Shown: piece by piece, positions 21,957 through 43,500 of the stretch
Position numbering within the stretch: position 1 is the first letter of the stretch
How the letters are laid out: each line of letters opens with the position of its first letter
Virus record (IMG/VR): IMGVR_UViG_2602042090_000006
Span: 9,728 to 73,727 of that record
DNA length: 64,000 nucleotides
From: a virus
Lineage: Duplodnaviria > Caudoviricetes
Strand: one strand, 5' to 3'
The notes under the pieces: generated by a model
What the model was told of the DNA's origin: nothing
The model's database searches: none
What the model saw: only the letters and a program-made list of their open reading frames with translations
Made by a program: the position numbers and the translations under genes

Positions 21957-22036
21957 GAAAAGACGTTCCTGTCGGGGGTGCGAATGGGAGCACCGATGGA
22001 ACTGTCTTGGATCATTGAAGAGAGTGGGTCATGGGT

Positions 22037-22065
22037 GCGAAATCGCAGCCCCACGGAACTAAAGC
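22037..22065 (-). promoter_or_regulatory. Putative late-activator site upstream of the lysis genes
   Basis: TGCGA-AA-TCGCA palindrome followed by N7-GGAAC-TAAAG. Confidence 0.6.
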
Positions 22066-24890: not shown

Positions 24891-25037
24891 TGCCCGCCCT
24901 CTTCAGTTCCAAAGACTGCGAAACCGTAGCCTTTACGAAGCGATCCAGAACCTGCGAGAGTGTGGCTCTGCGACCGGCGGGAACCGGTCGCAGAGCCTCT
25001 CAATCCCTCAAAGACAGCATTCGAAGGATCGAAAACA

Positions 25038-25884: not shown

Positions 25885-25894
25885 GGTCTCGCCC

Positions 25895-26554: not shown

Positions 26555-26844
26555 CCTTTTTTGAACGCGTCGTCAGCGTTCTTGAGGTCTTTGGCGGTAG
26601 CAACCACATGATCGCGGGCTGCCTTCTCGCCGGGTGTGTACTGAGCCTGTTCGAAACGGGAGATGGCCCGTTTCAGGCGTTCGATGGAGAGGCGGACCGC
26701 CCGTAGGCGGCTCCGCGTGGTGGCTTCATCGCGGTTGGCGGCTTCGATCAGCCGGACGTTCACGATGTCGTCGATCTCCGGCTGAAGCCGTCTGAGGAGG
26801 TCCGCTTTCGGGAAGGCGAACAGAAGGTCGAGCGTGTCCTTCAT
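26551..26844 (-). CDS. Hypothetical protein
   Basis: MKDTLDLLF...; GGAGG SD; coupled start. Confidence 0.6.
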   Translation of the reverse strand: MKDTLDLLFAFPKADLLRRLQPEIDDIVNVRLIEAANRDEATTRSRLRAVRLSIERLKRAISRFEQAQYTPGEKAARDHVVATAKDLKNADDAFKKG

Positions 26845-27134
26845 GCTGCATCGCCTCCTCCGTTCCATGTCGGCTTCGGAGCCTCGGGCCGACGGAACGG
26901 CACGATGTTGCCGCCGACCACGACGAGCTGCGGCCGTGGAGAGGCCAATGTCAGCTCGCGAGACAGGAAGCGGTTTTCCTCCTCCTCGCCTGTCGCCAGT
27001 TCGATCACCGTGTTCAGCTGGGTCAGGAGAGCAGCGACGTCCTCGCCGCTGAACGTGCCGCCGCCATGAACGAACGGCTTCAGCTGGTTGCGGATGGCGG
27101 TTGCGTGGTGCGATGCCTTGGCGCTGAATTTCAT
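26841..27134 (-). CDS. Hypothetical protein
   Basis: 97 aa, coupled; ends GGDAA. Confidence 0.65.
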   Translation of the reverse strand: MKFSAKASHHATAIRNQLKPFVHGGGTFSGEDVAALLTQLNTVIELATGEEEENRFLSRELTLASPRPQLVVVGGNIVPFRRPEAPKPTWNGGGDAA

Positions 27135-27415
27135 GACTTCCTCCCGAAATCTGGACGGATGATCGTGCCCGCTGACGGCAGCATGTCGGCCAAGGTGTCC
27201 GTGGCGGTCTGTTCGATGCGGGTGCGGTACTCGCGGCCGGCTTCGGTCTCGCGAAGGATGGAAAGCTCAAGCTCCATGCTCGCCGCGAGCTTTTCGAGGA
27301 TGCGGAGTTTGTGATCCAACACGCCTGCGAAAACGGAACCAGCAAGCACGTCCTTGGCACCGTCACGCAGTTGGCCGAGTTCCGTGCTCAGGGTCTGGTC
27401 GAGCGCCCTCCTCAT
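27131..27415 (-). CDS. Hypothetical protein
   Basis: Coupled to the MuB stop (MRRALDQTLS...). Confidence 0.6.
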   Translation of the reverse strand: MRRALDQTLSTELGQLRDGAKDVLAGSVFAGVLDHKLRILEKLAASMELELSILRETEAGREYRTRIEQTATDTLADMLPSAGTIIRPDFGRKS

Positions 27416-28437
27416 GAGATGTCTCCCAGATCCCGGTTCTTCCAAGCCATCTGCAGGTGCTTGAGCGTGACCTCGTCGCCGTCGCCGATCGCGGCCATGG
27501 TGGCCAGCTTCATGGTGCGGTCGATCTGCCGGAGCGCGCCCGGCTTCAGAGCGATACCAAGCAGGAACCGGATCATGTCATCGTCCTGGACGTCCCATGC
27601 CGCGATCAGCGTGCGCGCATCGTCGCCACGGCTCGGCTCACGCTTCAGGCGCTTGTCGAAGCGAGAGAGCACCTGCGCGCGGCTGGAAACCGACCGCGAC
27701 CGTTCCTTCATGAAGTCGCCGGCCGTGTCCTCGTTTCCGAGAAGCGCGACACCGCACTTGTTGATATCGACGAAGTGCCGGAGCTGATTGATCGCATCCG
27801 GCAAGAGGTTCTGCGCCTCGTCGATGATCAGGATCGAACCGTCGCCGATCCGCTGCAGCTTCCGGCCGATGGCCCGCACCAGGCGCGCCGGATTGTGCTC
27901 CGAAACATCCAGTTCTGCGGCCAGCTCGACGAGCATGCCGTGCACCGTCTTCGTGTTCGGACTGATCGTGGCGAGATACGCATGCGGCCGGGTCAGGCAG
28001 AAATGACGTGCCGCCGTGGTCTTGCCGACGCCGGCATCGAGCGTGATGGCAACGAAGCCCGCCGTCACCTGAGCATAGGCGAGCGTTTCGAGGATCTCGC
28101 GCGCAACCAGCGTCTGCTGGAAAACAGGCGAGACAGGAACACGGGAGGCAAGGCCCGAGCTTTCCTCGAGCGCCGCCAGCCAGTTGCTGACCTGATTGTT
28201 CTGGTTGACGAGAACGCCGAGATACTTGCCCGACGCCCACTGCGAGAAGGTGCCGTCCGGAATGTTCGTCCGGCGGGCGATCGCCGTCTTGTTCCAGCCA
28301 TTCGCCGTGGCCACGCCGATGACGCGCGAGATCAGGGTGCGCCAGATCTCGACGTCCTGCGCCGGGTGCTTGGCCAGAAACTCGGCTGTCGGCTGCGGGT
28401 GATCCCATCCGCTACTTGTGCCTGTGGTATTTTTCAT
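27412..28437 (-). CDS. MuB-like AAA+ transposition ATPase
   Basis: N-terminal HTH; AGVGKT Walker A; ILIIDEAQ Walker B; follows the transposase. Confidence 0.93.
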   Translation of the reverse strand: MKNTTGTSSGWDHPQPTAEFLAKHPAQDVEIWRTLISRVIGVATANGWNKTAIARRTNIPDGTFSQWASGKYLGVLVNQNNQVSNWLAALEESSGLASRVPVSPVFQQTLVAREILETLAYAQVTAGFVAITLDAGVGKTTAARHFCLTRPHAYLATISPNTKTVHGMLVELAAELDVSEHNPARLVRAIGRKLQRIGDGSILIIDEAQNLLPDAINQLRHFVDINKCGVALLGNEDTAGDFMKERSRSVSSRAQVLSRFDKRLKREPSRGDDARTLIAAWDVQDDDMIRFLLGIALKPGALRQIDRTMKLATMAAIGDGDEVTLKHLQMAWKNRDLGDIS

Positions 28438-28465
28438 CTACTTGGTTCCTTGCATAGAGACTTCC

Positions 28466-28497
28466 GGGCGCCCCTTCGTTGTGGCGCCCATTTTTTT
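28466..28497 (+). terminator. Plus-strand terminator between A and B (antisense to the operon)
   Basis: GGGCGCC-10 nt-GGCGCCC-ATTTTTTT. Confidence 0.6.
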
Positions 28498-28514
28498 GGT
28501 CGGAACCGTACGCA

Positions 28515-30536
28515 TTACTTTTCGGCTCTGGTCTTACGGCCGGGCTTTACTGACCCTGCCGCTGTCTTCCCCGTGGGGAATGGGATGATCGCGCTCTCCT
28601 CGCCCATGATCCGGGCAAGTCCGCGCGAGAAACTGTTTTCAAATTCGCCTTCACCGATCGCCTCGGCCGAGACGGCCGGAGCGAGGTTGCTGCCCGTGAT
28701 GAGGCGGGTGACGACGGGGCGCGGCGCCGGTGTCTCCGGGCGCTTCTCAGCCTTCTGGGCCTTGGCATAGATGTCGGCCAGCTTGCCGGCTTCGATCGTG
28801 CGGTTGAGTTCCAGCAACGACTTCGTTGCCTTGGCGTGATCGGAGGCCTGCCGTGCCGTCTGACGAGCAGCGGCTTGGCAGTCGAAACCAGTGGGGAGCA
28901 CGCACTCCGCGTCACCAATGAACCGGCCGGCGCCGTCGTAGAGCTTGACGGCACCATGCAGGTTTGCCGGATCGAACCGCATGGTCAGCTTTTTGCCGAT
29001 CCACTGATTGAGTACCGGAGCCCAATAGCGGTTGCCGGCGTAGTGGACCGCACCATCCGGCTTGCGAGCGGTGATGTTCTCGGCCGCAAGCATCCAGAGC
29101 GCGCGCTGCGCCGTGCTGGAGTAGCGCAGGATGGTCGAGGGTTCGGCGACGGACTCCGCAAACACGGCGTTGAAGCTGCGGCCATCGGCCATCTCTGTCT
29201 GACGGCCCTCGCGAGCATTGTGCTCTTCGACCATTGCCGAGACATGCTCCTGAAGCACATCGAGCTTCACGGCACGGCGTCCATAATCCTCGGGCTTCTC
29301 GGCAACGTTCGGGCCTGTGTAGGCCCCGGCCATGGCGGGATGCCGCGAAATCTCGTCGGCCAGATCCTTCCAGGCGCGTTCGATCGGCTTTGACCGGCCA
29401 GAATACGGCTTGGTGAAGTGCGCCTCGATGTCGAGCGTCTTCAGGAGGCCGGCGACCTCGTCTTCCGTGATCTTGTACCGGTTCCGGGCCTTGGCGCCGC
29501 CAGAGATCTTCTTCGAAGCGAACGCTTTCCCGTTGTCCATGTAGATGTGGTAGGGCAGCGCGCCGTCCGCGTTCTCGATCATCGCGCCGATGCAGGAGCG
29601 CACCGCTTCCCACGTCTCGGCTTCAGACAGGATCCACGACAGCACCTTGCGGGAGTAAATGTCTTGGATCCCGATGAGGATGACGCGCACCGGCACCTTC
29701 TTCCAGGGCACACGCACGAACAGATCGAGCTTGTGACCATCGGTGTTGACCATCTGCATGGCATGAAGATGCGCGACAGAGCGGGTCTGCGCCGGGAACA
29801 GCCGGGCGGCGGCTTCCTTGCCCTCACGGGCCAATATCTGGACAGCTTTCGGAACCTCAGCTTCGAGGCGCCGGCGCAGCGTGCGCTCGGAAGGGATCGG
29901 CGACCAGCCGTTCGCCTTGGCCGCAGTCATCATCCGGCGGAAGCAGGACGAAAACTTCGGCTTGCCCGACCGCAGGTAGTCCGACTTCAGGACCTCCCAG
30001 GCGTCAGCATGACAATCGGCAAGATCTGCGACAACACCGTTGACCGCAGGCGAGAAGGACGGTGCCAGCGCTGCGAGCCAGTCGGCCCGCGCGTGGCCTT
30101 CGACCATCTGACGCCAGTTGTAGTAGGTCCTCTCCGCGACATCGGCCATACGGGTGCAGTGCCTGACGGCAACCGTCGTCCCGATGCCGGACTTCTCCAT
30201 GTCGTCGACCGCGATTAACACGTTGAAACGCTTCCGGCAGATGTCCTTGTGCTCGTCGGTCAGGGCCTCAAAGCGGCCCCAAAGCAGCTTCGAAGCATCC
30301 TTGACGTCTGCTGCGGTCAGATCCGTATTCAGGAAGGCGAGCTTCTGCCGCGCCTCTTTCGGCAGCAGTGAGTAGTGATATTTGAGGCCACCGCCTTGCT
30401 TGGCGATAGCTGCCACTTTCCCGGCCTGATGATCCCATCCCGCGCGATCCGCATGGTCGCGGATACGCCGGACAGACGTAGGAAGGCCCGGCAACTTTGC
30501 CTCGGCGAGTTCAGGGATGGTGAACCACTCTTTCAT
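28515..30536 (-). CDS. MuA-like DDE transposase
   Basis: 673 aa; N-terminal Mu DNA-binding domain; catalytic NTDGH, YMDNG and KPIERAW motifs. Confidence 0.95.
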   Translation of the reverse strand: MKEWFTIPELAEAKLPGLPTSVRRIRDHADRAGWDHQAGKVAAIAKQGGGLKYHYSLLPKEARQKLAFLNTDLTAADVKDASKLLWGRFEALTDEHKDICRKRFNVLIAVDDMEKSGIGTTVAVRHCTRMADVAERTYYNWRQMVEGHARADWLAALAPSFSPAVNGVVADLADCHADAWEVLKSDYLRSGKPKFSSCFRRMMTAAKANGWSPIPSERTLRRRLEAEVPKAVQILAREGKEAAARLFPAQTRSVAHLHAMQMVNTDGHKLDLFVRVPWKKVPVRVILIGIQDIYSRKVLSWILSEAETWEAVRSCIGAMIENADGALPYHIYMDNGKAFASKKISGGAKARNRYKITEDEVAGLLKTLDIEAHFTKPYSGRSKPIERAWKDLADEISRHPAMAGAYTGPNVAEKPEDYGRRAVKLDVLQEHVSAMVEEHNAREGRQTEMADGRSFNAVFAESVAEPSTILRYSSTAQRALWMLAAENITARKPDGAVHYAGNRYWAPVLNQWIGKKLTMRFDPANLHGAVKLYDGAGRFIGDAECVLPTGFDCQAAARQTARQASDHAKATKSLLELNRTIEAGKLADIYAKAQKAEKRPETPAPRPVVTRLITGSNLAPAVSAEAIGEGEFENSFSRGLARIMGEESAIIPFPTGKTAAGSVKPGRKTRAEK

Positions 30537-30994
30537 CAGCGGCCCCGTCGCTTGATCGTGACGGGACGCGCCTGCAGTGTCTTCAGTTCGGCTGCCAGCT
30601 CGCGTTGCTCCTGCTGAAGGCGTGCGATCTCGGCAAGCCGGGCCTCGTCGCCTTCGAGCAGGATCAAGCCATCCTCACTGAGCACCACATCCCAAAGCCA
30701 GACGGCTCCGGTTGCCCGAACGAACGCCTTGAAGCGCACGAGGCTGATGTCGTGGGCCGTCTTGCTCTCGGCCGTGTAGGCATCGAGCGCGCCTTTCGAC
30801 ACGGACGACAGGCCGAGGTAGTGAGCCATGCGGGTGGCGATCGTGGGCCGATCGTACGGGCATTCGCGGATGGCGCGGGCCATCTCGCGCTTCAGCAGCG
30901 AGCGGAAACGATCGAGGTCGATCTGCTCGGCAGCCTGCCGTACGGGAAACACAGCTTCGGCGAAGAAGTCGAACTGGTGAGGATCGCGCTTCAT
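30536..30994 (-). CDS. Putative DNA-binding regulator
   Basis: IA.RM..YLG...VSK..LDAYTAES; sits directly before A. Confidence 0.7.
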   Translation of the reverse strand: MKRDPHQFDFFAEAVFPVRQAAEQIDLDRFRSLLKREMARAIRECPYDRPTIATRMAHYLGLSSVSKGALDAYTAESKTAHDISLVRFKAFVRATGAVWLWDVVLSEDGLILLEGDEARLAEIARLQQEQRELAAELKTLQARPVTIKRRGR

Positions 30995-31818
30995 GCTGCA
31001 CGCTCCAGAAACGAGAAGTCCGAGTTCGAGCCGATATGGTCGAGGAACCGGCGCTGCGTCTCCTCGTCGGCCTTGCTCCAGAGCGCTGCCATCTTTTCGA
31101 AGACGGCCTGCTGCGGATCGACCTCGGCTTTCGGAGCCTTCAGCATCTGCAAAACCGGCTTGATGTCCGGGCTTTCCCGAAGGGCGTTCGCTACCCTCAG
31201 CTGATCGTCGGCCGACAGCTTTGCCAGCTTGAGCAGCATGGACTGATCGCCTTCGGCATCTGTCCCCCGCACGGCGTGACGCAGTACCGGATGAAGGTTC
31301 TGGCCAATACGTGTTGCGCGTTTGTAGGTGTTCTCTCCGAAACCCAGTCGTTCCTGGACTGCTCTCGACAACTCTCTTCCAGAGGAAAACATCGTAGGGT
31401 CATCGTGACCCTTCGAGTTCTTCAGGTGTCGCGTCTTATCGATTTTGCCGTTTTTCTCCTCCCACAACTCGCGATACTTCATGACGAAGATGGCGCGATC
31501 GAGCGGGTTCAGCTCGTTGCGATAGAGGTTCTCGGAGATCTCCAGCAGCTGCGCTTCTTGCGCATCTGCCTCGACGATGATGGCGTCGATTTCGGACCAA
31601 CCGAGCAGCTTGGCTGCCGTCGTGCGGTAGCCGCCGGCGACCAGCGTGAAGGGCGTAGCGCCCTTGTTCTTTGCAGGCGTCCTGCGGATCATGATCGGGC
31701 TGATCTGGCCGCGCTCGGTAAGCGAGGCCGCGAGCATTTCAACATAGGCCGGGTCGATCGGCCGGAGCCGGTCACCGATATGAATGTCTGAGAGGGGTGC
31801 ACGGATGAACTCGGCCAT
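30991..31818 (-). CDS. ParB N-terminal-domain protein with HTH
   Basis: LAASL.E.GQISPI.I..., LVAGGYR..A, EISENL.R.EL..LDRA motifs. Confidence 0.85.
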   Translation of the reverse strand: MAEFIRAPLSDIHIGDRLRPIDPAYVEMLAASLTERGQISPIMIRRTPAKNKGATPFTLVAGGYRTTAAKLLGWSEIDAIIVEADAQEAQLLEISENLYRNELNPLDRAIFVMKYRELWEEKNGKIDKTRHLKNSKGHDDPTMFSSGRELSRAVQERLGFGENTYKRATRIGQNLHPVLRHAVRGTDAEGDQSMLLKLAKLSADDQLRVANALRESPDIKPVLQMLKAPKAEVDPQQAVFEKMAALWSKADEETQRRFLDHIGSNSDFSFLERAA

Positions 31819-32186
31819 TACGCGGCATCCTCGACGGCTTCATGCAGGGCGGTCGTGAACAGGTCTTGCGCGCGGGCGGCGATCGCGCGGTACGTCCGCT
31901 CGAACACAGGCTCGTCGCAGCGATAATCGACCGTGCGGACGGCCTGACCGACCATCGTGCGACCGACACCGAGCAGCACCATCACGCGACGGCGCGGGAT
32001 ACCGAACTGGACCATGAGGACATGGATGGCGACCTGCCGAGCAAGCGCGGCGTCCAGCATATCGACCGGCGGATTGATGATGAACCGGAGCGGCAGGTGG
32101 CTGAAATGCGACCGGCTGGCACGATAAGCGGCAGCGACCATCGCCTGCAGCCGCTCTTCAGCGGAAAACGGGTTGAGATGGCTCAC
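31818..32186 (-). CDS. HTH protein resembling DnaA C-terminal domain IV; start approximate
   Basis: ARQVAIHVL...IP......LGVGRTMVGQAVRTV pattern. Confidence 0.6.
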   Translation of the reverse strand: MSHLNPFSAEERLQAMVAAAYRASRSHFSHLPLRFIINPPVDMLDAALARQVAIHVLMVQFGIPRRRVMVLLGVGRTMVGQAVRTVDYRCDEPVFERTYRAIAARAQDLFTTALHEAVEDAA

Positions 32187-32470
32187 AGGCTGGCCCTCGC
32201 AACGCTGAAGATGACCGCGAGGAGACCCATGGCAGCGACGCCAAAGATCAAGGTCGTGTCGGCAGCACGGCAGATCGACGAGCGAGCCGGGATGAACGGG
32301 TTACTGCCAAATTCGGGCGTCACTTTCGCCATAGGCTTGAGCGCGGAAACGCGAGAGACTTCAGTTGTGGCGCGGACGGCGCCGTGACTGACGGCCGGGG
32401 ACTTCGGGTCCCTGCGGCAAGTGTCGCGGTAGGCTAGAGCAGACGGTCGTTCGTTCGCGCCCACCATCAC
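32183..32470 (-). CDS. Hypothetical protein with C-terminal TM; start uncertain
   Basis: Fills the gap after ner; hydrophobic C-terminus. Confidence 0.45.
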   Translation of the reverse strand: MMVGANERPSALAYRDTCRRDPKSPAVSHGAVRATTEVSRVSALKPMAKVTPEFGSNPFIPARSSICRAADTTLIFGVAAMGLLAVIFSVARASL

Positions 32471-32733
32471 GCGGCACTCCGGCCGGCGTTGGCATACTTG
32501 GGCGAAAGGATCTTGGATGTCGTCTTGGGATAACGATCAGGAAAAAGCTGCTCGACGGGTTCGCCGAGGAAGTCGGCAATCGCCTGCTCGGATTTCGCGT
32601 TGGGGCGGTTCCAGATCGTGCGGAAACCCCCAGGACTGACATTGTTGATTTCTGCCAGTTTCGTTAAGGTCATCCCACGGCGGCGAAGTTCGCCGAGGAT
32701 GGCGTGACGGTCCCACTTTCGGGGCTTGGTCAT
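32467..32733 (-). CDS. ner: Ner-like transcriptional regulator
   Basis: WDRHAILGELRRRGMTLTKLA...EQAIADFLG.....LFPDRY; divergent from the repressor. Confidence 0.88.
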   Translation of the reverse strand: MTKPRKWDRHAILGELRRRGMTLTKLAEINNVSPGGFRTIWNRPNAKSEQAIADFLGEPVEQLFPDRYPKTTSKILSPKYANAGRSAA

Positions 32734-32831
32734 CCGGTTTCTCCTGCGAAAAGCGGATGTTGGCGCATCCGCTTTTTGTTGAATGTTGTTGAGCACAAGC
32801 AGCCCGCATTACGCGGCTGCTATTGATAGAG

Positions 32832-32875
32832 GTAAAGCGGTTTTATGGCTTTGTAAAGCGTAAAGCGGCTCTATG
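32832..32875. promoter_or_regulatory. Candidate repressor operators in the divergent promoter region
   Basis: GTAAAGCGGTTTTATG (32832) and GTAAAGCGGCTCTATG (32860), plus a third TAAAGCG. Confidence 0.55.
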
Positions 32876-32884
32876 TTTTAAAAT

Positions 32885-33580
32885 ATGGCGCGTCCTGAAT
32901 CCGCACCTAAGACCGAGCTGGCAGCACGGCTTCGAGAGTTTCGCCGACAGATGGGCGATCCTGAACGAGATGAATTTGCGCGCGGGCTGGGCGTCGGAAA
33001 GACAACGCTTGCCTCGTACGAACGAGGCGAGACCGAGCCGACAGCCTCAGTGTTGAACGCCTATCGGGAAAAGTATGGTGCTAACTTGATTTGGTTTGTC
33101 ACCGGCAAAGGCGAAGCCGTTGAGGCCAACCAGCGCGTACAACCGGCTGATCTACCGGCTGAGTTCATCCGCTTGCCGCAGTACGATGTCGCAGCCTCAG
33201 CCGGGCGGGGTGTGATTTCGTACGTAGAACACGCCGCTAACGAGGTGACGTTCGAGAAGCGGTTCCTTCGTGCTCTCGGTGCGCAGCCTGAAAGCTGTTT
33301 CCTCATGTGGGCGAAGGGGGACAGCATGTTGCCGACCTTTCCAGATGGGGCCATGCTGATCGTCGATCAAAGCCAACAGACTGTCGATGACGGCCGGATC
33401 TACGTCTTTAACGCTGAGGGCAATTTGCTCGTGAAACGCGCCAGATGGCGCTTTGACGGCAGTCTCGACCTGATGTCGGACAACGTTGCCGGAAATTACC
33501 CGGTAGAAAGCTTCGTGACAGACCGCATCGTCGATCTGATCGTGGTCGGACGCGTTGTATGGTACGGCCGTTCCGCATAG
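32885..33580 (+). CDS. CI-like repressor (XRE HTH plus S24 autopeptidase)
   Basis: HTH with YERGETEP; ASAG cleavage site; GDSM catalytic Ser; VKR Lys. Confidence 0.93.
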   Translation: MARPESAPKTELAARLREFRRQMGDPERDEFARGLGVGKTTLASYERGETEPTASVLNAYREKYGANLIWFVTGKGEAVEANQRVQPADLPAEFIRLPQYDVAASAGRGVISYVEHAANEVTFEKRFLRALGAQPESCFLMWAKGDSMLPTFPDGAMLIVDQSQQTVDDGRIYVFNAEGNLLVKRARWRFDGSLDLMSDNVAGNYPVESFVTDRIVDLIVVGRVVWYGRSA

Positions 33581-33650
33581 GTCAATTTTCCTAGCGTAAG
33601 GTAGCTTGTGAGAATCTTTTCCACAGCCGATTGACTCCCGATAACTAGGG

Positions 33651-33665
33651 GAACAAACTAGGAAC
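33651..33665 (+). promoter_or_regulatory. Alphaproteobacterial LexA (SOS) box overlapping a promoter
   Basis: GAAC-AAACTAG-GAAC; TTGACT -35 at 33631. Confidence 0.8.
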
Positions 33666-33694
33666 ATCCGCAGCTTTAAAGCAAGGAGTTCCAG

Positions 33695-33949
33695 ATGGCG
33701 TTGCAGACCAAATATATCATTGTGCCCTTCAAAAGAGTGAAGGGAGGAGCGATTGTCCCAGGTGAGATGCGAGCGGCATCGAACGAAGCTTCTGCCGAAC
33801 GGATCGCTGAAGCGATGTCAGAAAGGTTTGCCGGAACCGCTGCTTTCGAAGTTCTTGCTGATATGGAAACGGGCGAAATGACCAGCCCGCGACTGCTCTG
33901 CAAATTTGGCAGCATCGTTGATTTCACAGAGGACGCAGCAGCAGCATGA
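33695..33949 (+). CDS. Hypothetical protein, SOS-box operon gene 1
   Basis: AAGGAG SD; 84 aa. Confidence 0.8.
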   Translation: MALQTKYIIVPFKRVKGGAIVPGEMRAASNEASAERIAEAMSERFAGTAAFEVLADMETGEMTSPRLLCKFGSIVDFTEDAAAA

Positions 33950-34158
33950 ACGCCCCGTCCGAGATCGTCCCTACCCCTCATGCCCCTGAGATGACAGAGC
34001 TTCAGCAGGTGCTGGCTTACCATAACGGGAACACAGTTGCGGCTGTCGAAACTTTGCTCAAGGATTGCCGCCATCTTCGTGAGCAACTCACCTTGGCAGG
34101 TGCTGCCGCCAGCATCGGCTTCACACGCGGTTGGCGACCGGTAGCCGACAGGGACTAG
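33946..34158 (+). CDS. Hypothetical protein, SOS-box operon gene 2
   Basis: ATGA-coupled; helical; ends GFTRGW. Confidence 0.75.
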   Translation: MNAPSEIVPTPHAPEMTELQQVLAYHNGNTVAAVETLLKDCRHLREQLTLAGAAASIGFTRGWRPVADRD

Positions 34159-34160
34159 CC

Positions 34161-34484
34161 GTGCCAGACACTAATGGCCCGAGCAAGAAGATCCGCCGCT
34201 GGACGCTTCGAGAAGCGGCGGATGCTGGCCAGCTGGTCAAACTGATCTGCACATACTGCAAGACTATGAAGCGGTTCACTGCCAGCGACGTTCACCGCCT
34301 CTGTGGCGACCTCACTCTCTACCAGTTCCCGGAGCGGTTCCGCTGTGAGAAATGCGGGAAGAAGGATTATCTGGTGGCAGACTTTGAGGCGCACTACGGA
34401 CCGAATGTTGGCAAGGTGAAGATCCGCCGCCTCGAGCGGATCAAGATCATTCACCGGCCGATCTGGAAGGACGACATCATTTGA
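34161..34484 (+). CDS. Zinc-ribbon protein, SOS-box operon gene 3
   Basis: CTYC...CEKC; GTG start. Confidence 0.75.
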   Translation: MPDTNGPSKKIRRWTLREAADAGQLVKLICTYCKTMKRFTASDVHRLCGDLTLYQFPERFRCEKCGKKDYLVADFEAHYGPNVGKVKIRRLERIKIIHRPIWKDDII

Positions 34485-34573
34485 GCACCGTCCTTCTTAA
34501 ATCAGGCCGTTTTCAAGCTAAACGGCGAGAAACGTTGCGAAATTTCAAGTGAGGACGCACCGTCCTTCTTAAA
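34485..34573 (+). repeat. 17-bp direct repeat GCACCGTCCTTCTTAAA (34485-34501 and 34557-34573)
   Basis: Exact copies 72 bp apart in the non-coding end region. Confidence 0.85.
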
Positions 34574-34648
34574 ATTGACTTGGGGCTGCCAAATCGCCGT
34601 TCCAGGCCGAAATCCTCAGCCAACGCCGTTCGCATCCACATCGTTATA

Positions 34649-34661
34649 AATCAATGATTTG
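34649..34661 (+). promoter_or_regulatory. IHF consensus site near the prophage end
   Basis: AATCAATGATTTG matches WATCAANNNNTTR. Confidence 0.6.
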
Positions 34662-34865
34662 AAGAGCCGTAAAAGGCATTTCGAGGGATCTTGAAGCCCT
34701 CTTCACAGCCGCAGGCAAATTCAGCGAAAATTGCCACATCGGCCTGATTTCGCGGCCGACCCGCTGTCAAAAACTCTTGCCGATCATCCCACGCGATCGT
34801 CGCACAAACCGTTATCATTCAACGGCTTCCCGCAAAATCCCGCAGGTTCCCAGATAATCCCGGTT

Positions 34866-34921
34866 ATTGCAGATAGGTGTGACAGACAACACCGGTGTAG
34901 CCGGACGCGACTTTTTGCAAT
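34866..34921. repeat. Abutting terminal inverted repeats of the two prophage ends with a CCGG spacer
   Basis: TGTTGTCTGTCACACCTATCTGCAAT (minus strand from 34891) vs TGTAGCCGGACGCGACTTTTTGCAAT (plus strand from 34896): 17/26 identical, ungapped. Confidence 0.8.
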
Positions 34922-34999
34922 TTTGACACCGGGTTTTGCAGATACTGAGTTCTGCAAATGCACTGACAAAATGTCTTCAAAGCCTGCTCAACGGCTCGG

Positions 35000-35290
35000 C
35001 TAGTTAAGCCAGCCGTCCCTAAAGAGTTGAGCTCGTGCTTTGGCGCACTGTTCCCAATCGATTTCTCTTTTTTCTTTAAGGGACTCGTCCCGCACCTCCG
35101 CCATTTGAGCGGCAGCGAGTTCACCCATCAGGGAGCGAAGCCACTCTTGGGTTTGGGGTCCGATCGTAATCTTACATTCTTTCACCCGGATCATCACGTC
35201 CAGAATGGCGATCTTACCTGTGACCTGTGCCACTGCCGTCTCACTCACGAACGACAGCGAGGTTATGAAAAAAAGTCCAAGAGCACGCAT
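35000..35290 (-). CDS. Small exported protein (moron)
   Basis: Signal-peptide-like N-terminus (AVA cleavage); two Cys; lower GC. Confidence 0.65.
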   Translation of the reverse strand: MRALGLFFITSLSFVSETAVAQVTGKIAILDVMIRVKECKITIGPQTQEWLRSLMGELAAAQMAEVRDESLKEKREIDWEQCAKARAQLFRDGWLN

Positions 35291-36093
35291 TAAGACCTCA
35301 CAATCAGTTCACGGGCCTGAACGCCTTTGCCGCCCGCGACAGAATAAAGCAGATCCACATCAACAACGTCAAATGCGCCAAACAGCTGCCGCGTCTGAGG
35401 GGCATCGTTGATCGATAGGACGAAATTCCCCTTCAGCCTACCGAGGCGTTCGGCCATCACCTCGAACTGATCACGTCCGAACAGGGCAGCACCATAGTCG
35501 CCCTCGCTGCCGAAGTATGGCGGGTCGAGATAGAAGAGCGCGCCGGGCCGATCGTAACGATCGATAAAGGCCAGCCAGTCGAGGTTCTCGATCACCACAC
35601 CGGCAAGGCGCTCATGCACGTCCTCGAGCATAGGAGCAAGCCGCGTGAGATTGAACCGAGACCCGCCCTCGTGCACCACACCGAACGTCTGGCCCGATAC
35701 CTTGCCGCCGAAGGCAAGCTTCTGGAGATAGATGAAGCGCGCTGCGCGTTCGAGGTCCGTCAGCGTAGAGGGGTCGCACGCCTTCAAGCGCTCGAACTCG
35801 CGACGGCTGGTGATCTGGAATTTGAGGCAATCCATGAACTGCGGATAGTGCCGCTGAAGGATGCGAAACAGGTTCACGACGTCCCCGTTTCTGTCGTTGA
35901 TGACCTCATGCCGAGGCGCCGATCGGCGACGGAAGAACACGCCGCCCATGCCTACGAACGGCTCTGCATAGGTCGTGTGCGGAATGTCGGCGATCATCTT
36001 GACCAAGCGCGGGGCCAAGGTCCGTTTTCCACCGATCCATGCGGCTGGTGGCTGGGTATTAACTACGTCTCTAAAGCCGTCTTCAAAGGGCAT
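35290..36093 (-). CDS. Dam-family (D12 class) DNA adenine methyltransferase at the mom position
   Basis: WIGGK, EPFVGMGGVF, EVIND and LDPPY motifs. Confidence 0.93.
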   Translation of the reverse strand: MPFEDGFRDVVNTQPPAAWIGGKRTLAPRLVKMIADIPHTTYAEPFVGMGGVFFRRRSAPRHEVINDRNGDVVNLFRILQRHYPQFMDCLKFQITSRREFERLKACDPSTLTDLERAARFIYLQKLAFGGKVSGQTFGVVHEGGSRFNLTRLAPMLEDVHERLAGVVIENLDWLAFIDRYDRPGALFYLDPPYFGSEGDYGAALFGRDQFEVMAERLGRLKGNFVLSINDAPQTRQLFGAFDVVDVDLLYSVAGGKGVQARELIVRS

Positions 36094-36116
36094 TTAAAAG
36101 GTTCTCAGAATCATGC

Positions 36117-36222
36117 CACACAGGGCTGCCTCGAAAGAGGTCTGGGTGTGACAGTTATCCTAACTGGCTGTCGGAAGGGTCTGGCGTCGAAACTTGGCCC
36201 GTCCTCGGAGGTTTGCCTCCGG
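36117..36222 (+). ncRNA. Candidate multi-stem structured RNA upstream of the methylase
   Basis: Four adjacent stems, including CCTC-GAAA-GAGG, CAGTTA-TCC-TAACTG and CGGAGG-TTTG-CCTCCG. Confidence 0.45.
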
Positions 36223-36234
36223 CACCTGGTGCTT

Positions 36235-36269
36235 GGCTTGCGGAGATCCATCTGAGATCTCCGCAAGCC
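36235..36269. repeat. Perfect 14-bp inverted repeat
   Basis: GGCTTGCGGAGATC-CATCTGA-GATCTCCGCAAGCC. Confidence 0.85.
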
Positions 36270-36283
36270 GTGTCGCTGAGGTA

Positions 36284-36568
36284 TCAGTTGATCGTCTGTT
36301 CCGCTGTCTCTTGCACAACCGGCTCGGCCGCGACCGGCGCTTCCGGCCGGTTCGGGTTGAGCTTGCGATCGACATATTCAGGCTCGTACTTCTGGAGCAG
36401 GGCATAGGCCTCCGTCAGCTGGGCCGAAATCGTGTCGAAGCCCTGGGCGAGCATATCGCACTCGTTCTGGAGAGCTTCGTTACGGCGCTTCATCGAGTTG
36501 ATCATCATGTGCATGCTGAGTTTCCTTGTGAGGTTGTTCTGGATGGAAAGTCGGGATCGGCGTGTCAT
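36284..36568 (-). CDS. Hypothetical coiled-coil protein
   Basis: ATGA-coupled (MTRRSRLSIQ...). Confidence 0.6.
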   Translation of the reverse strand: MTRRSRLSIQNNLTRKLSMHMMINSMKRRNEALQNECDMLAQGFDTISAQLTEAYALLQKYEPEYVDRKLNPNRPEAPVAAEPVVQETAEQTIN

Positions 36569-37251
36569 TCGGCCGACCAGTTGACCTCGGCGGCTGCGGT
36601 GATGGCCTGTGCGGTTTCTGCCGCCGCAATCGCCTTTTTCGCAGCCATACGCTTGGCCTCGACGCCTGCCGAGATGTGCTGCCATCCTGTGAAGGTATCG
36701 ACGATCTGATGTGCCTTCTCAGCCTTGGTCATCCCGTCGGCTTCGGCTTCAGCCACGATGTGAGGGATATCCGCGTCCGGGACGCCGGCGAAAGCGACCT
36801 TTGCGCGAGCCTCATCGAGCTTCTGCTGATAGGCCATGATCTGACCAAAGCCCGGCGTGATGAACTGCATCCGGTATGCCTCGGCCGCGCGATCGATCTT
36901 CACCACGGCTTCGGCCCGAAGCGCATCGAGATCGACCTCCGCTGGAGCCGGGCTCCACTGGTCGATGTAGGTTTTCAGGCCGTCCGGGATCGCCGGCCAA
37001 TCGTTGGTGAAGCCGTCGAAGAGTGCGTCTTCGGCCTTGGTCAGCTGGCCGCGCAACGCGTCCGCGTCCGGGCCCGACAGCTCGGCCAGCATCTTGCCCG
37101 CCGTCTGATACCAGAACTCGGATGCGCTGAGGATCTGCTGTCGGCCGAGCCAGATGGCAGCGGCAACGGCCCAGCGCGAGGGCTTCTTCTGTTTCAGGCT
37201 CTCGACGACGCCGTCGGCCATGGACTCGTACATGCTATCGATGTTGTACAT
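36565..37251 (-). CDS. Putative tail fibre assembly protein
   Basis: C-terminal Y.QK..EA...E.KR.AAK.AI.AA pattern seen in fibre-associated proteins; AAGAGG SD. Confidence 0.65.
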   Translation of the reverse strand: MYNIDSMYESMADGVVESLKQKKPSRWAVAAAIWLGRQQILSASEFWYQTAGKMLAELSGPDADALRGQLTKAEDALFDGFTNDWPAIPDGLKTYIDQWSPAPAEVDLDALRAEAVVKIDRAAEAYRMQFITPGFGQIMAYQQKLDEARAKVAFAGVPDADIPHIVAEAEADGMTKAEKAHQIVDTFTGWQHISAGVEAKRMAAKKAIAAAETAQAITAAAEVNWSAE

Positions 37252-37284
37252 TGCTTTTCCTCTTGGTGGTTTCAGGTAGGCACG

Positions 37285-37587
37285 TCATCGGGATCGCCGT
37301 GGTGATCTCCACGGCAGGGCATCCAGAATTTGCTGATCGGGGCTGACTTGAGCGACTTCCGGCTCAACCGGCACAATCTCAAGCGTTCGCGGATCGACGC
37401 GAATGTCTGTGACGGAAAGCAGCCTTTCCGGAACACGAAGGCTGGGGTTGGCGTACCGGGCTGTCTCAGCGTCGTATTCCGCACGCCCGAAGGCATTGCC
37501 GTGGTCGGAGATGGAGCCTGTCACCGGGTCGTAAATCACGAACCACAGTTCCTGCTCTCCGGGTCCAATGCTGTCAGACTCGCTCAT
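37285..37587 (-). CDS. Hypothetical tail-associated protein
   Basis: Coupled to the giant tail gene; FVIYDPVTG.I motif. Confidence 0.6.
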   Translation of the reverse strand: MSESDSIGPGEQELWFVIYDPVTGSISDHGNAFGRAEYDAETARYANPSLRVPERLLSVTDIRVDPRTLEIVPVEPEVAQVSPDQQILDALPWRSPRRSR

Positions 37588-40500
37588 TTCTTCAACCTCG
37601 TGATCGTCCATGAGGTGCCGTCATTCGTCATGCCGGCGCTGCTGCCGAAATACCCCATGTCTTTATTGTTCGTTCGCATCGCGCCGCCGGACCCCATGAC
37701 GAACACGAGGGTAATCGTCACGTTCTGCGCGCTGCCGCCGTTGGTGAAGCTGCCGGAGATCGACTGGCTAGAGCAGCCGTAGGTATCGATGGCCGGCCCC
37801 GTGACTTTGATGGTGTCGAGGACCGTGCTGTTGATCTTCAGCTGCACGTCGCCGGCGTAGAACACTTCGGCGTTAACCCCTGTCATGGAGCCGCGAAGGT
37901 TCCAGAAGGCGTTGATGACGAGACGCTCTTCGGGTGCCAGCGTCAGTGTGCGCGTCAGCACCGTCGTCGTCGCCGACTTCGCCACGCTGCCGCCGCTCGT
38001 GTTGTAGTAGACATTCGAGATGGCGCCGTTGACCAGCTTCTCCCCGTTCAGGGTCGCATCGGTGATGTCGATGTTCGTGACCTTGATGTTCAGCGCCGAC
38101 AGGTTCGCGACACTGATTTTCTCGGCCGTAACGGCATTGGCTGCGATCTTGTCTGCCGTCACCGCGTTCGCGGCGATCATGCCGGCCGTGAGGGCGCCAT
38201 CTACGATCAGATCGCCGCCGTTGCGCTCGAAGCACCCCACGGCACCGAAGTAGACATTGCCGCCCGTTGTGTCCCGCTGGACAAACAGCTCGATGACGGC
38301 GGAAGCCGCTTCGCCGGGAGAAACCAGATTGACAGCCAGCGTACCCGTGCCGCCCGACCCTCGGTTGCCGGTGTTGATGTAATCAACGTAGCTCGCAATG
38401 TTCCCGCTGGCGTTCAGCCAGAGCACGCGGATCATGGCGTTGAAATTGTTGTTCGAGTAGATGGCGCCGGTGAAGCGGTAGGCAGTGCCGCCCTTTACCG
38501 GGAATGACCGGCTCTGGCAGTTCGTGTAGCCTCCGGAACCCCAGGGCCCAGCAGTGAAGGCCATTCCATTGTAGGACTGAAAGAGGCCGTGATCGCCCCA
38601 TACGACCCAGCCCGGAATGGTGCCGACCCACGCATCTGTCGTCGTCATCTGGTTGTCCGGGACCAGATTGTTGAAATCCGAGATGACGAGCTGCTTTGCG
38701 GTGATCGAGCCTGCCGCGATCTCGCGCGCACCCAGCGTGTTGGCCTGAAGCTTAGAGCCAGTGATCACGCCCGCCTGGATATTGTCGGCGGTGATCGCAT
38801 TGGCGGCAATCTTCCCCGCCACGACAGCATTCGCTCCGATTTTGTCAGAGCTGATGGCAAACGCCTGGATTTTGTCGGCGGTGATCGCGTTCGATGCGAT
38901 CTCGGTAGCGCTGATCGTGCCAACCGCGATGTGACCGGCGCCGATCGTGCGCGCATTGATCTCGTAGCCGGTGATCGTCGCAGCGATGAAGCTGTCAGCC
39001 GAGATGGTCCGGACCGCAATCTTGTCACCGGTTATCGTGCCACCGGCGATCTTCGCGGCCGTGATGGCGTTCGCGGCTAGCTGGTTGGTCGAGACCGCGC
39101 CGGCAGCGATCGTCGCTGCGGTCACGGCGTTAGCAGCGATTGTCCCGGCCGTCACAGCGTTTGCAGCAATCGTGCCTGCTGTCACCGCGTTCGCTGCGAT
39201 CTTCCCGGCCGTGATCGCATTTGCCGCGATCTTGTTGGCCGTAATCGCGTTGGTGACGATGTTGCCTTCGGAGATGACGGTCGTTCCGCCCTCGCTCCAA
39301 GGCGATGCTTCCAGCTGGTTGGCCGTCGCTTCGCCCAGATAGAACTTGGACGCCCAGGTGTAGGAGTTCGTGCCCCATGCCGCACTATGCCCCATGCACC
39401 GCAGGAAGAGCTGAACGTGCGTGGTTCCGGCCGGAGCCTGTCCTTTCACCCAGATCCGCTCATAGCTGGCCAACTGGCTGCCCGGATCGCCGTTCTGGTG
39501 CGTTGGCTTGTCCGCGAACGTATAGCCAATCGTCACGCCACCGTTGTTGACGTACTCGATGTGAAGGCGAGCATAATCAGACCGGTGCCCGTAGACATAA
39601 ACAGACGCTTCTAGCCATGAGCCCTGCGCAACCGGCCAACGCATAGGGATGTTGTTGTCTGCGGGATTTCGCGGGGACAGGTCGGCAAACTGGCCGTTGT
39701 TTTGCGCGCCCTCCTGCAGAACCTGAAATGCGCCGTCGATAGGCGTGAAGTTGTCGTTGCGCTTGAGGAACGACCAGTTCGCGCTGGACGCATAGATCCT
39801 CCAGTTGGTGATGTCGGCCTGGGCATTTGAGTTCGGGATCCAGTTCGTCCCTTTGCCGACGGCGAGCTTGTCTGCATAGATGGAGCCCGCAGCGATCTTG
39901 TCGGCAATGACCGCTCCAGCGGCGATCTGCCCCGCCGTGACGGCGCCGGCCGCAATGGTGCCGGTCGTAACCGCATTGGCCGCAATCGTGCCGGCCGTGA
40001 TCGCGTTTGCGGCAACCGTGCCGGCGGTTACTGCATTTGCCGCGATCTTGCCCGCGACAACAGCCCCGGAGGCAATGCTAGCCGCTTCCACGGCGCCGGC
40101 GCTGATTTTCCCGGCGGTGACTGCGTTCGCTGCAATCTCGCTTGCGGTAACGGCATTGGCTGCGATCTTCGCCGTGGTGATCGAGTCCGCCGCAAGGTGG
40201 ATGGTCGAGATCGATCCATCCACGACCAGCTCGGCACCCTCCGCCTTCCGCAGAGAAATGCGATCGATGATCAGGTAGCGCGTCGTTGACGGGCTGTGGT
40301 GGTAGATCTGCACCTTGCAATAGGTCGCAGAACCCGGAACCTGCGTCTTGCCGGAGCGCTTGTCCCAAGCGGCTGGAATAGACGCGTTGCCCTGCACATC
40401 GGTGTACTGCGGCGACGCAAGCGCTGTCTTGTTACGATCGAACCACAGGATGCGGTAATAGAAACCGAAACCTGAAGATCCGTCAGTCGTACGAACGGAC

Positions 40501-43500
40501 ACATCCCACGCCAGCCAGTCACCGGACGTCACGGGGATGAAGTCCTTCGTGACCATATTCATGGAGATGGTGCCGCCGGACCCCCCGTTTGTGCCGTTCT
40601 CCAGAACAAGCGACCAACGACCGGTCTGTGCGTCACCGACCCAGAGCCAGATATTTGCGCCGCCCGCACCGGAGCCGTTGTACATCGGATAGTTGGCGTC
40701 CCAGACCGATGTGAGCGCGCCTTGCTCAAACTGCCCGTCGGGAATGAAGTTTTCAAAATCCGTTAAGATGAGCTGCTTGGCCGAGATCGCGTTCGCGGCG
40801 ATATTGTTGGCCACGATTGCGTCAGCGGCGATTTTCCCCGCAACCACGGCATTGGCCGCAAGCTCATTGGCAGTGACGGCGCTGGCGGCCAGCTTTGCAG
40901 TCGTGATGGCGCCGGAAGCGATCTCGGTCGCGGAGATCACGCCCGCCGCGATCTTCCCGGCGACAACCGAGTTCACAGCCAGTTTGTCGGCGGTAACAGC
41001 CAAGGCATCGAGCTTCGCAGTCGTGATGGCGCCCGACGCAATCGTGCCGGCGGTGACGGCGCCAGCAGCGAGCTTGGCCGTCTCGATCGCGCCGGAGGCG
41101 ATCTTCGCGGCCGTAATCGCATTCGCCGCGATCTCATTGGCTGTGACAGCATTGGCAGCGATCTTGCCGGCTACGATGGCACCAGCAGCGATCTTGTTCG
41201 CAGTGATCGCATTGGTGACGATGTTGCCCTCGGTGATGAGGGTGATCGAACCTTCGCTCCACGGAGTAGGCTCGGACTGGTACTGCGTTGCTTCCCCGAC
41301 ATAGAAACGAGAGAACCATGTGTAGGAGTCGGTGCCATTTGCGGCACTATGACCAAAGCAGCGCAAAAAGATTTCGACATGCGTTGTGCCTGCCGGCGCC
41401 TGACCCTTTGCCCAAACCCGCTGATAGGCTGAAAGCTGGCTTCCAGGGTCCGAGTTCTGGTTTGTCGGCTTGGCATCCATGATGAAGCCGAGCGAGTTAC
41501 CGCCGTTATTGAAGCATTCGATATAGAGCTGAACGCCGTTCGAACGGTGCCCGAAAACATAGACGGACGCTTCCAGCCACGACAGCTGCGCAACAGGCCA
41601 GCGCATAGCGTAGTTGTTGTCGAACGGGCTTCGCGGGTTAACGTCTACGAAGGCTCCATCGAGCCGTGCGCCGCTCTGAAGAACGTAGAAGCAGCCATCG
41701 ATGGGTGAGTAGTTGTTGTTCGCCTTTCCAAAGTCCCAAGTCCCCCCCGACCGGAACTTGATGCCCCAGTTTGTCAGGTCGGCCTGAGCGTTCGAGTTCG
41801 AGACCCAGTTGACGCCCTTGCCGACGGCCAACTTCTCTGCGGTGATGATCCCTGCAGCGAGGTTCGCGGCGGAGACTGCACTCGCTGCAATGGTGCCAGC
41901 CGTGATGGCATTCGCAGCCACGGTACCGGCTGTAACGGCGCCGGCCGAAATCGTGCCGGCTGTCACGGCGTTGGTCGCGATCTTGCCAGCGATAACAGCG
42001 TTCGCCCCGATCGTTCCGGCCGTCACGGCGCCGGCGGCAAGCTTGGCCGTCTCGATGGCGCCGGCGGCGATCTTGACAGCGGTGATCGCATTCGCAGCGA
42101 TCGCGTCGGCCGTCACAGCGTTTGCTGCAATGGCGTTGGCCGTGATCGCAGCAGCCGACACATGCCGCGCGACGATCGCGCCATCGACGATCAGGGATGC
42201 TTCCGCCATCTCGACAAGCTGGATGTCGGAGATCAGCCAATAGCCTACGGCGTCCGTTCCGGTGTCCATGTACGGAACAGGCGTCGCGGTCTGCGTCCTG
42301 GAGCTGTCCGTCTTGAAGCGCCATTCGATCGTCTTGCCGGCAGCTGCCTGATATCCGGTGTCCGTCGCTGAAGCGATGACGCCCCCATCCGAGGCGGAGA
42401 TCGACATGTCGTTGATGACGAGCGCATTGAAGTTCTTGTTGCACCCGACGTTCTTCACGATAGCCGACGCGCGGTACCAGGTGTCCGGCGTCAGGGGAAA
42501 GCCGCGGGCGATCCAGCCATGGATGCGCGGGCCGGCGTTCGCCGCAGCAAGGGCGGCATTGAACTTCATGGCACCAGAGACGCGCATCGCTGCGACCTGG
42601 GCATCCGTGCTGGAGACGAACGTCACATAGGGAGCGTTTGGGGACCAATAGCCCGGATCTCCGTAGAACCGGTCAAGAATGAGGCTCGCGCCTACAGCGT
42701 TCGCGGCGATCGACATCTTGGATGCCGTGATCGCGTTGACGGCAATCTTGTCCGCCACGATGGCGCTCGCCTGAAGCTTCGGCGTCGAGATCGCATCATC
42801 GGCGATCTTCGTGTTCGTCACCGCGTTCGAGGCAAGCTTTGCCGCATCGACCGCGAGCGCCGCAAGCTTGGCGTTTGTGATGGCGAGATCGGCGATCTGT
42901 GTTCCGACAAGCTGGCCGGAAACCTTGGCGGCGGCAACGGCGGCGATCTGCGCATCCGTTAGCTGGCCCGTGACCTTGCCGGCCGCGATCGCTGCGATTT
43001 GTGTGTCGGCGATCGTGCCGCCGATATCCGGAGCCGCGACACTCGAAGTCCACGCGGCCCCATCAAACCGGTAGATCTTGCTATCGGTGCTCAAGAACAC
43101 GACCCGGCCCGCCGCATTGCCAGACGTCGGAAGCGAGGCGACGGTTTCTACGGGCTTCAGGCCTGTGCCGAACTTCGCGGCCGTGATGGCGGCATCGGCG
43201 ATTTGACTTGAGACCAGCGTGCCTGTGACCTTGGCCGCGCCGACGGCTGCAATCTGCGTATCGGTCAACTGGCCGGTGACCTTGGACGCGGAGAGTGCGG
43301 CCAGCTGGGCGTCCAGCAACGTGCCGGTGATGTCGCCGGCAGCCAAAGTGGAGACGAAGGCCGTGCCGTTGAAACGATAGATCTTGTCATCCGTCGTCAG
43401 GAAGACGATCCGGCCTTCGGTGTTGCCCGTGGTCGGCAGCGAGGACACGATTTCGATCGGACGAAGGCCGGCGGCAAACTTCGCGGTCGTAACGGCAGCG

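Follow-up and report, generated by a model that had tools for sequence, protein, structure and literature searches.

What brings two Mu-type phage genomes to lie head to tail with only four base pairs between them? The question is raised by a 64,000-nt stretch of the IMG/VR virus record IMGVR_UViG_2602042090_000006 (positions 9,728 to 73,727; hereafter the window), which corresponds to G000:C1:3605123-3669122, that is, contig C1 of genome assembly G000. Classic Mu inserts nearly at random and shows immunity of the DNA next to its own ends (cf. PMC7350765). Our analysis makes it probable that the junction is the seam of two separately acquired, related Mu-type prophages, here called A and B, within a three-prophage head-to-tail array that starts 72 bp past a tRNA-Met(CAT) gene, and that the lineage to which these phages belong homes beside tRNA genes.

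The seam can be read directly in the window. Copy A runs as ...GACAGACAACA to its terminal CA at 34891, CCGG alone follows, and copy B opens with its TG at 34896 as TGTAGCCGGACG (in a longer reading, ...GGTGTGACAGACAACA to 34891, then CCGG, then TGTAGCCGGACGCGACTTTTTGCAATTTTGACAC starting at 34896), so that CA-CCGG-TG forms an 8-bp palindrome. The reverse complement of 34866-34891 agrees with 34896-34921 at 17 of 26 positions without gaps, with TGCAAT closing both arms, a match expected by chance at ~5e-5 (binomial, p=0.27 per base), and the motif TTGCAGATA is found at 34867 and 34936 and TCTGCAAA at 34951. A sequence-only reading of the window had described this geometry, namely two distinct Mu-like genomes head to tail, termini 4 bp apart, the ungapped inverted repeat and the further repeat motifs, and each element was borne out when the repeat was recomputed, the motifs were located and A and B were aligned and proved related but different. 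The termini themselves are supported in two independent ways: the left ends of A and of the third prophage, C, are alike up to the CA and unlike directly beyond it, and contigs from other public sequencing runs break precisely at 34891|34892 and 34895|34896. Contigs of run X2 end or diverge at 34891, one contig retains the final 30 bases of A's left end without change before it departs past 34891, and a contig of run X5 begins to match B's right end exactly at 34896. Six relatives share A's left terminus, ...CA[AG]ACAACA, and B's right end is 85% identical to A's over 89 nt. Run X5 also holds an A-like left end that leads through CCGG into host-like DNA, resembling by eye the sequence downstream of the same tRNA in a relative.

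How the seam was made is recorded in a target duplication. Directly outside A's right-end TG (window -9852 to -9848) stands CCGGT, the same pentamer as at 34892-34896; A thus has an exact 5-bp direct repeat at either end, and it fits the Mu consensus NYSRN. The sequence-only reading had named ACCGG or CCGGT at the outer flank as support for an overlapping 5-bp duplication, and the second of these is what the outer flank contains. Because the right-hand copy consists of the four spacer bases plus B's first T, the ends were joined by ordinary Mu-type transposition with a 5-bp staggered cut whose target took in the terminal base of a resident. The CCGG spacer is what remains of the duplicated target once the base owned by the neighbor B is set aside, and whichever prophage arrived first, a 5-bp insertion of Mu type that overlapped a resident's terminus produced the seam.

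As for the order of arrival, C and B were probably resident and A came last, landing nearest the tRNA; A is favored as the newcomer because it lies nearest the tRNA and is the only intact copy. In two relatives (G004 and the A-like end of run X5), the host base after CCGG is A and not T (CCGG then ACAC, aligned by eye), and the T of the right-hand duplication is therefore best explained as B's first base. The same mechanism could have run in reverse, with A resident in a host CCGGT and B inserting later into ACCGG, which likewise fits NYSRN, so that newcomers add at the resident's left end. Such an order predicts the same sequence at both flanks of A, and B's left end and flank, which would tell the two orders apart, were deleted by an IS21-family insertion sequence. 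We consider it unlikely, since it requires a host T where the two relatives carry A, places B's insertion 45 kb from the tRNA when right ends of the family lie within ~125 bp of one, and has to accommodate an intact A beside a damaged B and C.

The whole array spans ~120 kb and reads, head to tail, tRNA-Met(CAT), 72 bp, A, CCGG, B (truncated), IS21, C, host. Copy A measures 44,739 bp; its right-end TG, at G000:C1:3595275, lies 9,847 bp to the left of the window. The last 5,756 bases of the contig repeat its first 5,756 at 99.72% identity (window 58261-64000 against C1:1-5756), the usual sign of an untrimmed circular long-read assembly; therefore B continues at the contig start, and the end of the window, whose final base is the final base of the contig, is an assembly end and not a biological one. 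The IS21-family element links B, cut at the gp27 region, to approximately position 29 of C's right end, and an associated deletion seems to have taken out the early half of B, the seam between B and C, and the terminus of C. From there C extends to its left-end CA at C1:51846. Two Mu DDE_2 transposase genes are present in the genome, one in A and one in C, and none in B. A and B align over 14.9 kb at 95.8% identity, over 8.9 kb at 85.5% and over 2 kb at 93%; their outermost right ends resemble each other for only ~90 nt, and elsewhere they carry unrelated segments. The repressors of A and C are only 29% identical and these two phages are therefore probably heteroimmune, B's repressor having been lost. 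The host frame is conserved: the 600 bp up to the tRNA end are 79-97% identical in 7 of 7 same-genus genomes, and the DNA past the tRNA is not conserved. In G004 the DNA that flanks C's right side lies ~140 bp from the tRNA, a near-empty site, and two other species of the genus carry the same type of right end 77 and 63 bp past the orthologous tRNA.

These features bear on two further explanations. The sequence-only reading had offered as its second option the junction of an excised circle that returned to the chromosome through homologous recombination, or that persists as a circle or concatemer; such a form might also have been assembled into the chromosome. Abutted TG and CA ends do resemble the circle or dimer junctions of IS30, IS21 and IS911, in which two transposon ends likewise face each other across a few base pairs, and the CA-CCGG-TG palindrome is perfect. 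Those junctions, however, unite the two ends of one element and carry no target duplication, whereas the genomes flanking this seam are different phages (85-96% identical, or 4-15% apart, in shared parts, with unrelated segments), A has its own matching 5-bp flanks, the array is embedded between host flanks conserved in relatives, and similar seams with other spacers occur in other assemblies. We did not find this option supported and regard it as barely credible. Nearly as improbable is a misassembly that joined prophages from different loci through repeats. The contig does end inside B, the copies share 14.9 kb at 95.8%, and no read has been seen to span the seam; yet the contig end is a circular overlap and not a repeat break, the junction lies ~14 kb from the long shared stretch, A's left end and B's extreme right end are unique in the genome, and a chimeric join would not predict CCGGT at A's outer flank.

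The position of the array beside a tRNA gene is shared across the lineage. In a family sample of 401 genomes, the right-end motif occurred 29 times in 23 genomes (a reversed-pattern control gave 0), with a complete same-strand tRNA 15-102 bp upstream at 16 of 28 oriented loci and a tRNA 3' fragment at 6 more. A scan of a species-level genome collection returned at least 120 sites after clustering; the two samples partly overlap and their counts were not summed. Collection-scan counts, here and below, are among the 120 matches listed. Complete same-strand tRNA genes precede 81 of these sites at 12-252 bp, 78 of them within 125 bp and 13 clustered at 12-20 bp, and they are of few types (67 Met-CAT, 8 Ser, 5 Leu-TAG and 1 His). 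No site had a tRNA on the opposite strand; orientation is invariant. A tRNA 3' fragment precedes 15 further sites, which we take to mean that an integrase-type island later entered the tRNA, bringing to 96 of 120 the right ends that follow a tRNA 3' end on the same strand. The remaining matches abut a left end (4), are chance hits in unrelated phyla (7), lack upstream sequence (1) or lie elsewhere (12). By rough arithmetic, a random position falls within 125 bp downstream of one of ~56 tRNA genes, in the given orientation, ~0.1% of the time. The counts describe a lineage-wide habit and not 96 independent events. As a pattern, lysogenic insertion in this lineage is non-random, with the right end placed tens of bases past a tRNA gene in one orientation, mostly at two non-initiator tRNA-Met types; near-random choice of site, a mark of Mu-like phages, does not describe it.

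Within the zone, the choice of pentamer is Mu-like. Of 112 pentamers that precede the TG, 56 conform to NYSRN, compared with 15.5% of nearby pentamers, and CCGG is often at their core. In all six relatives in which MuA and MuB genes were found 33-38 kb from the right end, an identical pentamer borders both ends (ACGGT, CTTCG, CTTGT, CTTTG, GCCGG and GTGGT), and every left end reads ...CA[AG]ACAACA. No MuA or MuB was found in 5 of 12 relatives in the DNA 29-49 kb from the right end, nor in G285 in the 29-43 kb available before its contig ends; these may be remnants or prophages of different length.

Other tandem cases, which the sequence-only reading had named as a test of its first option, occur among relatives. 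In G143, a left end is followed by CTTGT and then by another right end, and CTTGT also precedes the prophage's own right end, 20 bp past tRNA-Met. On a single contig (L128/L132), a prophage 17 bp past tRNA-Met shares ATCAA with a left end 42.6 kb away, and this tRNA-distal left end lies 34 bp before another right end. Further seams have 4 bp (L108), TGTA four times over (L148) or 17 bp (L183) between the ends. Nor do resident ends keep insertions at a distance, as target immunity would have it: A and B are 4 bp apart, and the other seams measure 5, 4, 16, 17 and 34 bp. Specific-site or relative-end targeting that builds tandem arrays, the first option of the sequence-only reading, is supported by A's CCGGT flanks and by the non-random insertion sites of homologous prophages, most of them after a tRNA 3' end and four against a left end.

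The two halves of that option can be weighed separately. Newcomers might be drawn to a resident's right terminus, through bound transposase or repressor or through a CCGG-rich sequence that makes an ideal Mu target, with the tRNA mattering for the first arrival only. Partial copies of the right end's first 4-47 bases stand directly before complete right ends at many loci; a 9-bp TGTAGCCGG that precedes A's flank turns up four more times elsewhere (at L087, L102 and L188 and on a metagenome contig of run X2); and in G143 the newcomer's target directly abuts the resident terminus. In L128/L132, on the other hand, the ATCAA duplication, 13-17 bp past the tRNA, stops 29 bp short of the next right-end sequence, itself a 15-bp partial copy directly before the other prophage's complete right end. 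In run X5, where B is absent, host-like DNA comes directly after the A-like left end and its CCGG, and short spacers (at most 25 bp, 14 sites) hold no right-end remnants. Attraction to a resident's terminus therefore strikes us as doubtful, and homing anchored on the tRNA is better supported than a pull exerted by a relative's end as such. The stutters, that is, the partial copies, we infer to have arisen when a newcomer landed in a resident's first bases and recombination between the tandem copies then removed one.

We also considered whether long spacers are stacks of decayed right ends, an idea that fails as a general explanation: right-end remnants (p<=0.01 against shuffles) were detected in 0 of 14 spacers of at most 25 bp, in 3 of 22 measuring 26-45 bp and in 8 of 42 above 45 bp. 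Two side observations concern the same intervals. At L012 (G007) and L030 (G143), three and four complete right ends, respectively, are stacked within 200-500 bp; since the target duplication is found at the outermost of them, the phages appear to carry additional internal right ends along when they transpose. Separately, a GGTTAGCC motif recurs in the spacers between tRNA-Met and right end at L096, L099, L122 and L136, twice in some.

What might be recognized at the tRNA? The T-arm 17-mer GGGGGTTCGAGTCCCTC is exact in 47 of the 81 target tRNAs and present with at most two mismatches in 75, including 5 of 5 Leu-TAG targets. In the genome studied here, it occurs in only 2 of 56 predicted tRNAs, both non-initiator Met-CAT (G000:C1:2954721, complement, and C1:3595126), the next best having two mismatches. 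The T-arm is thus a concrete candidate recognition site. The tRNA at C1:2954721, of the other tRNA-Met type and the commonest target in other genomes, is unoccupied here.

Several candidate means of reading this site were examined. Copy A and its target tRNA share no exact match longer than 10 nt, and shuffled controls gave 10-16, so that an attachment (att) core or an RNA guide is unlikely; in six relatives, tRNA matches of at least 10 nt in the right-end 1.5 kb and the 20-kb early region were likewise not above shuffled controls, a 77-nt match in G007 being discounted because the slice still held the tRNA itself. An integrase-type prophage in the tRNA gene was rejected, as the tRNA is intact and 72 bp away and the flanks are a 5-bp duplication; no integrase appeared in Pfam and PHROG scans of the early region, the late genes not having been scanned protein by protein. 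TniQ or TnsD was not found in Pfam and PHROG scans of A's early genes, nor was a second transposase set found in the array. A 271-amino-acid open reading frame after MuB (26551-27366, minus strand) was considered as a TniQ analogue and dropped: its N-terminal part is Arg-rich and of low complexity, it has no family match, it is kept in the closest relatives only, and the real gene probably comprises just the final ~100 codons.

The interval from ner to the transposase gene holds three lineage-specific genes, encoding p122, a ParB-like protein and p152, which we can only infer to be candidate accessory or target-selection factors. Their order is kept in 7 of 7 relatives examined, and p152 is 59-99% identical among relatives whose MuA proteins are 47-89% identical. 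Among 50,697 phage records, p152 occurs in 4, representing three phages (POA1180, Aussie and StopSmel), all Mu-like phages of Rhizobiales. A profile search of p152 against solved structures gave 0 matches. Its AlphaFold model is helical (mean predicted local distance difference test score, 73.9), and a Foldseek search of the Protein Data Bank returned best E-values of 0.46-3 (XRE, ClgR and C-protein helix-turn-helix proteins), none reaching 0.001; the model gives only a hint that p152 may be a small helical DNA-binding protein.

From these elements a mechanism can be sketched. Phages of the lineage would home successively to the same short zone downstream of a tRNA, newcomers pushing older residents outward. 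Tentatively, a phage factor other than TniQ or TnsD might read the DNA of the tRNA T-arm, and this same factor would then recruit MuB and the transpososome directionally, much as TnsD does for Tn7. Insertions into a resident's first right-end bases would leave stutters once recombination removed one tandem copy. Replicative transposition during lytic growth would probably stay non-specific. One assembly holds the same right end in six contexts (L077, L080, L100, L114, L124 and L143), two at tRNA-Met and three elsewhere, along with a 40-kb phage contig at ~3x the coverage of the chromosome contigs; the culture seems to have had several copies or to have been undergoing replicative transposition, and the contexts and coverage together fit non-specific replicative copies. 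Stated as one hypothesis, to which we give somewhat less than an even chance, a MuA/MuB lineage of Rhizobiaceae and neighboring families would carry a non-TniQ selector that reads tRNA T-arm DNA and directs oriented integration downstream, with lytic replication non-specific, the p122/ParB-like/p152 genes as candidate module, and arrays and stutters as footprints.

A number of observations weigh against homing and against our account of the seam. Both surveys used the right-end motif alone as query, so that the collection sample was itself drawn with the motif, and the genomes are related, so that counts overstate independence. Twelve of 112 sites are not near a tRNA, and the distance to the tRNA is broad (12-125 bp), whereas Tn7 keeps a fixed spacing. 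Most of the long distances are not accounted for by old scars, as recognizable right-end fragments are present in only 11 of the 64 spacers that exceed 25 bp. The correlation with the T-arm may simply reflect the set of tRNAs in use. No selector gene came out of scans of the array for TniQ, of A's early region for an integrase and of A for a guide-like match, the only TniQ (PF06527) matches in the genome lying on contigs C2 and C6. At the seams of L108/L123, L148/L193 and L183, matching duplications were looked for and not found. At the window's own seam, the right ends of A and B are 85% alike and classic Mu target immunity would be expected to oppose the insertion; a B-last insertion into ACCGG gives the identical sequence if the host base after CCGG is T, and B's own duplication is unreadable, its left end having been deleted with the IS21 insertion. 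Finally, none of 11 contig pieces from runs X1, X2, X4 and X5 bridges 34891-34896, leaving the junction without read confirmation. In the search of public runs, none held at least half of the junction's sampled words (best shares 0.24, 0.23, 0.21 and 0.17), and the absence of a bridging contig says nothing against the junction.

Comparison with known systems places the lineage between two families. With Mu and Mu-like phages (saltoviruses; D3112, B3) it shares a MuA-type DDE transposase, a MuB AAA+ protein, Ner and repressor, GemA and Mor, as well as TG...CA termini, imperfect inverted repeats, repeated internal motifs and a 5-bp NYSRN duplication; it differs in that its lysogenic copies lie in one orientation just past tRNA genes, abutting a relative's end. 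The nearest isolates are the Sinorhizobium phages Aussie (MuA 52% identical) and StopSmel (50%) and the Ochrobactrum phage POA1180 (48%). Tn7-like elements also make 5-bp duplications and stack at one attachment site. Their DDE transposase and AAA+ regulator are related to MuA and MuB, and they too insert in fixed orientation tens of bases past a conserved safe gene. TnsD or TniQ guides them to safe sites that include tRNA flanks, as in the CRISPR-associated transposons (CAST) I-B2 and I-D (PMC10293859, PMC8649781), and CyCAST inserts 30-33 nt past the end of a tRNA-Leu gene (PMC8649781, PMC10293859). Unlike them, the array lacks both TniQ/TnsD and a second transposase set, what moves is a phage of 45 kb, and the distance to the tRNA is variable (12-125 bp) where theirs is fixed.

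The closest phage parallel is Citromicrobium phiA (ISME Commun 2025, PMC12486242), likewise an alphaproteobacterial Mu-like phage with 5-bp NYSRN duplications and a narrow integrative zone: the relevant section reports integration within a 40-bp zone in 24 of 24 lysogens and replicative insertions chromosome-wide (PMC12486242). There the zone lies inside a hypothetical protein gene and not in a tRNA flank, and the section on integration mentions no tandem arrays, orientation rule or recognition motif (PMC12486242). The available part of the POA1180 paper gives no insertion site, and in the table available from a paper citing the StopSmel/Aussie announcement, the integration-site entries are blank. 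Full-text literature searches, with subscription journals and supplements outside their coverage, found no description of tRNA-flank homing or of tandem arrays of Mu-like phages.

The features of the array are collected in Table 1. In addition to the genes listed there, the early region of copy A encodes GemA, Mor, a DUF3164 protein and an endolysin-like protein, and the counterpart in copy C of B's methyltransferase gene matches Pfam MethyltransfD12 (3.4e-24). Beside C's methylase gene, in the extreme right-end slot, lies a YbjQ_1-family gene (Pfam 2.3e-22; L002 9401-9871, plus strand); A and B hold unrelated small genes there, and the slot is therefore a variable cargo position.

Table 1. 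Coordinates of the prophages, their ends and selected genes (window positions unless a contig or locus is named; aa, amino acids; HTH, helix-turn-helix).
Feature	Position	Strand	Remarks
Copy A, complete Mu-like prophage	1..34891 in window	-	Self-BLAST and end reading; gene content
Copy A, left (repressor-side) end	34692..34891	+	Terminates ...GTGACAGACAACA; TTGCAGATA repeat at 34867; A/C likeness stops after CA
CCGGT, right-hand copy of A's 5-bp target duplication	34892..34896	.	Spacer CCGG followed by B's opening T
Copy B, Mu-like prophage without early half	34896..64000, continuing into C1:5757-~6815	-	Cut off by IS21
Copy B, right (methylase-side) end	34896..34984	+	Begins TGTAGCCGGACGCGACTTTTTGCAATTTTGACAC; TTGCAGATA at 34936, TCTGCAAA at 34951
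D12-class adenine methyltransferase gene, copy B right end	35290-36093	-	Probable; DNA 90-93% identical to the A and C genes
IS21-family element	L002 6786-9316 (G000:C1)		IstA 498 aa, IstB 295 aa; replaces B's early half
MuB-type AAA+ target-capture protein, copy A, 341 aa	27412-28437	-	Pfam Phage-MuB_C 3.7e-21, AAA_22
MuA-type transposase, copy A, 673 aa	28515-30536	-	Pfam DDE_2 2.4e-37, HTH_Tnp_Mu_1/2, Mu-transpos_C
Three lineage-specific genes between ner and A	30536..32186	-	phrog_9734, phrog_3264, phrog_2345
p152	30536-30994	-	Directly adjoins transposase gene
ParB-like protein	30991-31818	-	Lineage-specific gene, ner-A interval
p122	31818-32186	-	Lineage-specific gene, ner-A interval
Ner-like gene, copy A	32467-32796	-	Pfam HTH_35 1.1e-24
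S24/HTH repressor, copy A	32885-33580	+	Pfam Peptidase_S24 and HTH_3

Collectively, our results describe a lineage that behaves like Tn7-like elements with the machinery of Mu. Mu is the textbook case of near-random transposition and target immunity; this lineage homes to a safe site and tolerates the end of a relative. Homing without TniQ or TnsD would mean that a MuA/MuB machine arrived independently at programmed target choice. The T-arm gives a directly testable recognition motif, and the lineage offers a new candidate selector with which large DNA might be inserted at chosen sites. In genome annotation, exact prophage borders can be read in many rhizobial genomes from the right-end motif together with the tRNA. 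Homing of this kind would also account for the formation of 100-kb prophage arrays and hybrid phages in rhizobia.

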